Assembly: GCF_003790525.1 (NCBI RefSeq)
Contig: NZ_CP033635.1
Origin: Escherichia coli
Lineage (GTDB): Bacteria; Pseudomonadota; Gammaproteobacteria; Enterobacterales; Enterobacteriaceae
Strand: one strand, 5' to 3'
DNA length: 64,000 bases
The notes beneath the pieces were generated by a model, which saw nothing but the letters and a program-made list of their open reading frames with translations, had not been told where the DNA came from and did no database searches. The position numbers and the translations under genes were made by a program. Positions within the stretch are counted from its first letter, which is position 1. Each line of letters begins with the position of its first letter. Positions 38,670-40,343 of the stretch are shown one piece after another.

Positions 38670-40343
38670 TTACCACCAGACTTCCGCCTGGATGCCGGCC
38701 ATAAATTCGTCTTTGCTGTTCTCATTAAACTTAAAATTAGATAATTCGTTATCCAGAATATTGATATACGTGCCATAGAAGCGAATTTCTGGTCGTGAAC
38801 CTAAAATGCTTTCACCCACTTTCAATGCATGCCAGAGTGTCGTTTTATAAGCCGATTCATTTAGTGTTACACCCTGCTGTGCTTTGTTCTGTTGCTTAAA
38901 CCAGCCTAATTCAAGCCCCGTCTGATTCCATGTATTCCAGATCCAGGCCGGTCTTATTACGGTGCGAATACTGTCAAAATCACTATGAGCGCCACTTTCA
39001 TAACTATAAACATCTTCGCCATGAGAATAGACAAGCGCGTTAGCCATAATAATATTGTCAGTAAGATACATCTCGCCCTGAGAGATTAAACGCCAGGCGA
39101 TCCCATTGGTATGGTCACCATAGTAATAGCGACCATGCGCCATCGTGTTACTGGCATCTGAGAAACTGGCAAAACTGCTGGCATAGGAATTATTGGCAAC
39201 CTGTAACGTAAATTCATTAAACGTATCGCGTTGCAGTTTTTGCCGTAAAACAGAAGTCAGCATCCAGCTATCTTTCATTTCAAAATAACTGTCGTCATTT
39301 TCATTATCTTGTTGTTGATCCGTTTTATTAGGTGCGGAATATTTAGCCATTAATGATAATGTTGCATCATCCCATAACGGGATATTGCGATAACGAACAT
39401 CCACAGAATTAGTATTCATCTGACTGGTACGCGTAAAATCACGGGAGTAAACATCGACATCATCTCGGCTTAAGGACATATCAAACAGCCCTACACCAAG
39501 TGCCCAGTTTTCAATCCCCACACCCGCAGCGACATCCGTGGTTAAGGTTTTCCAGTCCAGCATTTGGATCTCATATTGCGGGAGTTTATGTTTGCCTACC
39601 CAGAAGTCTGCCTCTGGCGCGAAGGGTAAAAAACCTCGCGTTGTCAGATAAATATCACTGAACTGCATGATATTTTCATTGGCACTGTCACCAAACCAGG
39701 CATCGTTATACTGCTCACCTACGTTGCCATCATAGGTAACGACCGCATTTGCCGTTTTACCGTCCTGATTATAAACACGCTGATTTAAGGTTAAGTCAAA
39801 CCAACCGCTCATCTCGTTACCAAAACGTCCCAGAGAACCCGCTGCATAAGTTTGTGGTGAGCCATGATTTCCGGTACCCCAACCTGAGCGAAAGTACCCC
39901 TGATAGCTGAACCCAATATCATCTTTTATATATTTACTGATATCTTTCAGGGTCACGCTTTCGATAGTGGTTTTATCGCCTTTACTTTCAATAACGGCAA
40001 TTTGCTGCGATCCATTTATAGTATGTGCTGCGGCAGACGAGTTCTGTTCACCGTTTTCATTTTTGATGTTATCAGCAACGGGAGATGGAGCTGATATTTC
40101 GGCAAGCGAGGCCGATTGATATTTATTTTCTGTGATGCTTTTTTGTAATGTCGAAAGTCGGAATTTATATACTCCTAGTTCATTCTGTGTTGCTCTCAGC
40201 TCTTGTTTATTTTGCGACAATTCATTTTCAAGCAGTTCAAGGCGCTGCTCTATGGTTAATTTTGTTGCCATCGCGTTCAATGGAAACAATGCTGTAATAA
40301 TAGAAAAAGACAAAAGGCTGACGTTAAGCGTCTTTATATTCAT
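38670..40343 (-). CDS. LamB-family sugar porin with N-terminal coiled-coil extension (ScrY/BglH-like)
   Basis: 557-aa ORF: signal peptide, heptad-rich segment ([22 protein letters not shown]), then beta-barrel with aromatic-rich strands and C-terminal ...AEVWW. Confidence 0.7.

Follow-up and report, generated by a model that had tools for sequence, protein, structure and literature searches.

A BglH-type sugar porin, very likely BgcH, in a strain-variable beta-glucoside PTS island of Escherichia coli

The island and its porin gene

The window analyzed here is a 64-kb stretch of E. coli DNA (contig NZ_CP033635.1, assembly GCF_003790525.1), which is 100% identical to the chromosome of E. coli SMS-3-5. 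In blastn comparisons with K-12 MG1655, homology ends at position 37151 and restarts at position 43437, and the intervening 6.3 kb, which replaces 38 bp, has a GC content of 0.38 to 0.46 versus ~0.50 in the flanks. The features of this island, with coordinates in the window, are as follows.

37152..43436, no strand assigned: 6.3-kb island between marB and eamA (blastn against K-12 MG1655)
42684..43382, plus strand: GntR/HutC-type regulator with a UTRA domain (bgcR), divergent from the operon (Pfam/NCBIfam, RefSeq)
42174..42485, minus strand: PTS lactose/cellobiose-family IIB (bgcE), first operon gene (Pfam/NCBIfam, RefSeq)
40738..42060, minus strand: PTS lactose/cellobiose-family IIC (bgcF) (Pfam/NCBIfam, RefSeq)
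40399..40710, minus strand: PTS lactose/cellobiose-family IIA (bgcI) (Pfam/NCBIfam, RefSeq)
40368..40395, minus strand: 11-bp intercistronic RNA hairpin between the IIA stop and the porin start (dG -19.3 kcal/mol, z -3.8)
38670..40343, minus strand: porin gene (bgcH), 557 amino acids, RefSeq "carbohydrate porin" WP_001022787.1
37206..38645, minus strand: GH1 6-phospho-beta-glucosidase (bgcA), last operon gene (NF007154, 1030 bits versus a cutoff of 624)

The five operon genes lie on one strand, separated by gaps of 24 to 113 bp, and adjoin the divergent GntR gene. The porin is encoded by a single intact open reading frame, with an AAGGA Shine-Dalgarno sequence 8 nt 5′ of its ATG start and a C-terminal end reading QAEVWW, and its coordinates are identical to those of the RefSeq protein. 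An initial annotation of this DNA had placed a 557-residue porin here without giving a strand; the frame is present, on the minus strand. The same annotation assigned the neighboring genes to a lactose/cellobiose-family PTS, and the family profiles agree (PF02302, PF02255, and TIGR00410, the last at 336 bits versus a cutoff of 236).

The bgc operon (Neelakanta, Sankar and Schnetz 2009) is described as comprising five genes, which encode IIB, IIC, IIA, a phospho-beta-glucosidase, and one further product; it is counted with chb, asc, and bgl as one of four beta-glucoside operons of E. coli and is called cryptic, and activated mutants are reported to grow on cellobiose, arbutin, and salicin. The gene content of the island (IIB, IIC, IIA, porin, phospho-beta-glucosidase, and divergent GntR regulator) is that described for bgc. 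We take the fifth bgc gene to be the porin gene bgcH and the gene order to be bgcEFIHA. It is very likely, in our judgment, that the gene studied here is bgcH and that it supplies the cryptic bgc beta-glucoside operon with its outer-membrane channel; the name BgcH and the equation of the island with bgc are drawn from secondary citations and from the matching gene content. In a published tabulation, c1955-c1960 of strain CFT073, a six-gene "cellobiose PTS" cluster, were scored as present in SMS-3-5, which is consistent with the bgc island, the gene-by-gene match being one of description. Sankar et al. (2009) do not mention bgc. Under this name the gene is already known: the BglH-type porin dates from 1999 and the bgc operon from 2009, and the architecture of the protein has its own Pfam entry.

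Two noncoding elements of the island may bear on its expression. The intergenic region between bgcR and bgcE (42486-42683) holds TGTGATCAATGTACCA, which partially matches the pattern of CRP half-sites, TGTGA-N6-TCACA. The operon reportedly depends on CRP, and the position of TGTGATCAATGTACCA in the divergent promoter region would be consistent with such dependence. A scan of the island for promoter and terminator consensus sequences returned counts equal to the shuffled expectation. The second element is the hairpin that precedes bgcH. Each locus examined has a stable counterpart directly 5′ of its porin gene; those at other loci are at the following positions.

L007, 5949-5972; L009, 5945-5973; L002, 6222-6292 (minus strand): hairpins upstream of the porin gene

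The hairpin of the Salmonella bgc locus shares the stem of its E. coli bgc counterpart but not the loop; in the Kluyvera variant the stem differs in sequence, and in the spacer between bglB and bglH of E. coli the stem is 13 bp long. No clear U-tract was seen 3′ of the bgc hairpin. The element could act by partial termination or by stabilizing mRNA and in this way set the amounts of porin and glucosidase relative to those of the PTS proteins.

A barrel preceded by a periplasmic helix and linker

The protein divides into four parts, given here with the corresponding window coordinates.

40266..40343, minus strand: signal peptide, residues 1-26 (read from the sequence; cleavage predicted after AMA and before T)
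40116..40262, minus strand: heptad-repeat periplasmic helix (Sugarporin_N), residues 28-76 (Pfam, heptad test, AlphaFold2)
39906..40115, minus strand: linker, residues 77-146 (AlphaFold2, identity to Salmonella)
38673..39905, minus strand: LamB-type beta-barrel, residues 147-557, ending in WW (Pfam, AlphaFold2, Foldseek)

Residues 147 to 557 match the Pfam LamB family (PF02264) over the whole model (positions 1 to 378 of 378) at an E value of 1.8e-81, with 275.5 bits versus a cutoff of 25.1. An AlphaFold2 model computed from a 37-sequence alignment has a mean pLDDT of 82.9, and the barrel (145 to 557) lies above 90. In a Foldseek search of the PDB, the only close folds were those of LamB-type maltoporins (1mal, 1mpr, and 8xcj; TM 0.75 to 0.78) and ScrY (1a0t and 1oh2; TM 0.78), with other porins at a TM of ~0.5 or lower. 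Pfam, AlphaFold2, and Foldseek agree on the barrel ending in WW that the initial annotation had proposed, and structure prediction, which it had named as a check, yielded both a barrel and a helix and so did not refute it. A single-sequence phmmer search against PDB sequences gave zero matches even at E=10. Family profiles built from alignments A1 and A2 recovered LamB from the same database at 1e-40 to 1e-109, and ScrY as well, and we treat the empty phmmer result as a sensitivity or filter artifact and not as a sign that no relative has been solved.

The roles of the residues that line the maltoporin channel, namely, the aromatic greasy slide, the polar tracks, and the constriction, are established for LamB. 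By alignment, Y150, W181, F375, and W556 of the porin correspond to the greasy-slide residues Y6, Y41, F227, and W420 of LamB, and R152, R173, and D263 to the polar-track residues R8, R33, and D116, with D263 invariant. The two remaining slide columns, again by alignment, hold no aromatic residue: W74 corresponds to D214 (with W215 adjacent) and W358 to L514. At the constriction, Y118 of LamB is replaced by K265, which is invariant in the BglH/BgcH subfamily, and R109 by Q256. With a leucine at the W358 position and other residues at the constriction, homology by itself does not give the specificity; the pattern of channel residues would be consistent with a specificity other than that of maltoporin. 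By analogy with its relatives, the barrel would act as a passive, sugar-specific diffusion channel and would presumably be trimeric.

Ahead of the barrel, the protein starts with a stretch that fits the Sec-type pattern when read from the sequence, with a basic n-region (K4), a hydrophobic core, and A-x-A at positions -3/-1, in keeping with the signal peptide of the initial annotation. This region aligns with the signal region of BglH, which ends in SLA before E. The heptad-rich segment of about 50 residues proposed in the same annotation is borne out by three lines of evidence. Pfam Sugarporin_N (PF11471) matches residues 30 to 56 at an E value of 1.2e-6 (29.1 bits versus a gathering cutoff of 25.7). 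The a-positions of the heptads are L35, L42, L49, L56, L63, and I70 and the d-positions are I31, L38, N45, T52, Y59, and L66; across residues 28 to 76, 10 of 14 a/d positions are hydrophobic, a count equaled in only 26 of 20,000 shuffles. AlphaFold2 predicts one continuous helix from residue 31 to residue 75 at a pLDDT of 80 to 91. In alignment A2, the motif LT[IV]E[EQ]RL..LE is common to the orthologues and BglH.

The linker combines a variable and a conserved part. Residues 77 to 111 are predicted to be disordered and share 43% amino acid identity with Salmonella, while residues 112 to 146, at 80% identity, form a conserved pre-barrel motif, TLKD.SK[FY][IV]KD[DE]IGFSY, which the porin shares with BglH and which also occurs in some relatives without the coil. 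The AlphaFold2 pLDDT is below 50 across residues 74 to 140. By analogy with ScrY, whose coiled coil is trimeric and glutamine-rich, the N-terminal helices (~28 to 76) most likely form a parallel three-stranded periplasmic coiled coil on a flexible linker; the single-chain AlphaFold2 model depicts a helix rather than an assembled coil, and the oligomeric state is one we infer. The role of the ScrY coil has been given only as stabilization or guidance, and the coil in BgcH would, as proposed for ScrY, stabilize the trimer and/or extend the path of the sugar. A more adventurous idea, to which we assign a quite low probability, is that the extension (a helix of ~45 residues plus a linker of ~70) is more than a passive stabilizer, namely, a tether that spans the periplasm and docks on, or hands substrate to, the Lac-family IIC. 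If that were true, the uptake route from outer to inner membrane would be physically coupled, and the constriction lysine would set specificity for aryl-glucosides.

Relationship to BglH, ScrY, and LamB

Over residues 20 to 557, the porin has 53% identity and 69% positives to BglH of E. coli K-12 (b3720), a carbohydrate-specific porin (Andersen, Rak and Benz 1999) whose gene is part of the aryl-beta-glucoside PTS operon bglGFBH. Both proteins have a signal peptide, the helix motif LT[IV]EQRLELLE, and a LamB barrel ending in WW, and both have K at the position of LamB Y118 and L at that of W358. Each is the product of a PTS operon that also encodes a GH1 phospho-beta-glucosidase, and a stable hairpin directly precedes each porin gene. 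The partner PTS of BglH, however, is the single Glc-family protein BglF, whereas BgcH is paired with Lac/cellobiose-family IIB, IIC, and IIA, and regulation in bgl is by the BglG antiterminator rather than by a GntR-type activator as in bgc. The porin gene follows the glucosidase gene in bgl but precedes it in bgc. Within the protein, the heptad stretch is longer in BgcH (the best a/d hydrophobic count in the aligned stretch is 10, versus 6 in BglH), and the linker is longer by ~20 residues.

LamB and ScrY are more remote. The BglH/BgcH subfamily profile (alignment A2) detects LamB at an E value of 1e-40 and ScrY at 1.4e-15, and in Foldseek structural alignments identity is 22 to 24% to LamB versus 16 to 17% to ScrY. 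LamB (1MAL, 1AF6, and 1MPR) shares the barrel fold, and four of its six greasy-slide aromatics as well as R8, R33, and D116 are kept in the alignment; it differs in having no N-terminal extension, in having Y118 and R109 where BgcH has K and Q, and in being part of the maltose ABC regulon, whereas BgcH belongs to a PTS operon. Maltoporin proper was considered and rejected, the scores being 204 bits versus 394 for NF006860 and 118 bits versus 765 for NF009061. Like BgcH, ScrY (1A0S, 1A0T, and 1OH2) combines an 18-stranded LamB-type barrel with a periplasmic Sugarporin_N extension, but the operon that encodes it serves sucrose and includes the Glc-family EII(Scr), and its extension is ~70 residues long versus ~120 in BgcH. 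Because ScrY is weaker than LamB in the profile search and the porin scores below the NCBI maltoporin cutoffs, we classify it on sequence grounds as a BglH-type porin, with ScrY sharing its architecture as a more distant relative than LamB.

The initial annotation described the architecture as known from ScrY, which is correct as far as the Sugarporin_N and LamB domains and the fold (TM 0.78) are concerned. These same features are what would speak for a ScrY-type sucrose porin having been recruited into a non-sucrose operon, a scenario we regard as very improbable given the profile and identity values above, the 53% identity to BglH, and domain scans and RefSeq annotation of the neighborhood that found no scr genes nearby. 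On sequence comparison it is already largely refuted. In BgcH, a BglH-type porin has been combined with another PTS family and another regulator, on a 6.3-kb strain-variable island beside the mar locus. It is a clean example of such exchange, and its coil and linker, which are longer than those of BglH, make it a convenient comparison case for the function of coiled coils in sugar porins.

Distribution, selection, and probable substrates

Among complete E. coli genomes, 2494 of 5426 (46%) carry the full island, and the cluster of porin sequences at 98% identity has 14,022 members. Citrobacter, Enterobacter, Kluyvera, and Salmonella (mostly subsp. salamae) have orthologues of exactly 557 amino acids and 75 to 83% identity. 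All six genes occupy another chromosomal site in Salmonella, in keeping with horizontal transfer of the entire set. Subfamily members at a greater distance (43 to 56% identity) are mostly in bgl-type units, with a BglG-like antiterminator, a Glc-family EII, and GH1 or GH106, while some are orphans; in two relatives (P0126 and P0129), the porin lies in a PTS operon with a phospho-beta-glucosidase. Since other subfamily members are mostly found with a BglG antiterminator and a Glc-family EII, the pairing with a Lac-family PTS is a bgc-specific variant, and a published one. The initial annotation's view that a porin of this kind is unusual beside a Lac/cellobiose-family PTS does not hold, given that this is the published bgc gene set, found in the same order in that 46% of complete E. 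coli genomes and in Salmonella, and that the nearest characterized relative, BglH, is itself the porin of another beta-glucoside PTS operon.

We compared substitution rates with Salmonella across the parts of the porin. Nonsynonymous divergence (dN) is 0.07 in the barrel, 0.10 in the pre-barrel motif (112 to 146), 0.28 in the coil, and 0.44 in the linker (77 to 111); dS is saturated, no dN/dS ratio is given for the barrel for that reason, and there are no indels. The low dN of the barrel, together with saturated dS and the lack of indels, indicates purifying selection, despite the operon's being called cryptic. That label, the absence of the island from 54% of E. coli genomes, and truncated or fused gene calls in some assemblies (P0009; P0002, P0003, P0005, and P0042) might be read as signs of a gene that is silent or decaying and no longer has a function. 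The substitution pattern of the barrel, a cluster of 14,022 sequences at 98% identity, and a reading frame that is intact and of equal length in E. coli, Salmonella, Kluyvera, and the listed Citrobacter and Enterobacter orthologues make this extremely unlikely, the least credible of the readings weighed here.

For the functional porin of a beta-glucoside operon, the following path can be proposed. The BgcH precursor would be exported through Sec and cleaved after Ala26, and residues 147 to 557 would fold into an 18-stranded LamB-type barrel and trimerize, as in LamB, ScrY, and BglH. Following their concentration gradients, cellobiose, arbutin, and salicin would pass by diffusion along the aromatic greasy slide and reach the periplasm, where the co-transcribed Lac/cellobiose-family PTS (BgcE, BgcF, and BgcI) would import and phosphorylate these beta-glucosides, and the GH1 enzyme BgcA would split the resulting 6-phospho-beta-glucoside; the divergent GntR-type BgcR would activate the operon. 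The substrate range of BgcH and the role of its extension are drawn here by analogy with related systems, and a literature search found no channel measurement for BgcH. Since the operon is reported to be cryptic, laboratory cultures may seldom produce the porin. The initial annotation had taken the architecture to imply a bulky sugar, a claim that the reported substrates, namely, cellobiose, arbutin, and salicin, do not bear out.

These laboratory beta-glucosides could also be fortuitous substrates only, the natural ones being beta-mannosides, glucomanno-oligosaccharides, or other aryl glycosides of plant or gut origin. Several observations point in this direction: GntR regulators like BgcR resemble GmuR of the Bacillus subtilis glucomannan operon, the operon is cryptic on the tested sugars, the constriction residues are subfamily specific, a 75%-identical orthologue in Kluyvera is encoded with IIB, IIC, and a HAD sugar-phosphatase and without GH1, and a 45%-identical relative lies beside a GH106 rhamnosidase. 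However, the GH1 protein of the island scores far above the 6-phospho-beta-glucosidase cutoff (1030 versus 624 bits), and activated mutants are reported to grow on cellobiose, arbutin, and salicin. We consider a different natural substrate unlikely and retain beta-glucosides as the probable substrates of BgcH.

Two of the variant loci deserve description in their own right. The Kluyvera orthologue belongs to a unit consisting of a GntR gene and IIB, IIC, porin, and HAD phosphatase genes, without IIA or GH1; it was found in Kluyvera georgiana and a related assembly (L009 and L010; 3266-8531), and the phosphatase is of the Hydrolase_3/S6PP-like type. This composition suggests a phosphorylated sugar with a different downstream fate. 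In assembly GCA_017569925.1 (L005; 3982-11313), a 45%-identical Sugarporin_N porin is encoded with a BglG-type antiterminator and a Glc-family EII split into EIIB and EIIC-IIA, and the cluster also holds an enzyme of the GH106 (alpha-L-rhamnosidase) family, a combination that hints at uptake of rhamnosylated glycosides.

In some E. coli assemblies, the porin is called as a fusion with GH1 (P0002, P0003, P0005, and P0042; 630 to 749 amino acids) or in truncated form (P0009, with 482 amino acids and 216 members, and P0027, with 492 amino acids). Such calls are either frameshifts or pseudogenes of particular lineages or artifacts of assembly or gene calling. A 98%-identical copy of the porin gene lies on NZ_CP141085.1 (376788-378458), an E. 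coli record of 385 kb that is classified as a plasmid. On the IncFIB plasmid NZ_CP138683.1 of Klebsiella pneumoniae (L003), a 50%-identical BglH-like porin accompanies yieL- and yieK-like genes in a region flanked by IS903B, IS110, and ISKpn26. Elsewhere in the 64-kb window, the only Rfam match at gathering level was to the Hfq-binding small RNA family STnc560 (280 bits; 45924-46137, minus strand), in the ydeE-dgcZ interval downstream of mgtS/mgtT, where the K-12 annotation has the small RNA mgrR.
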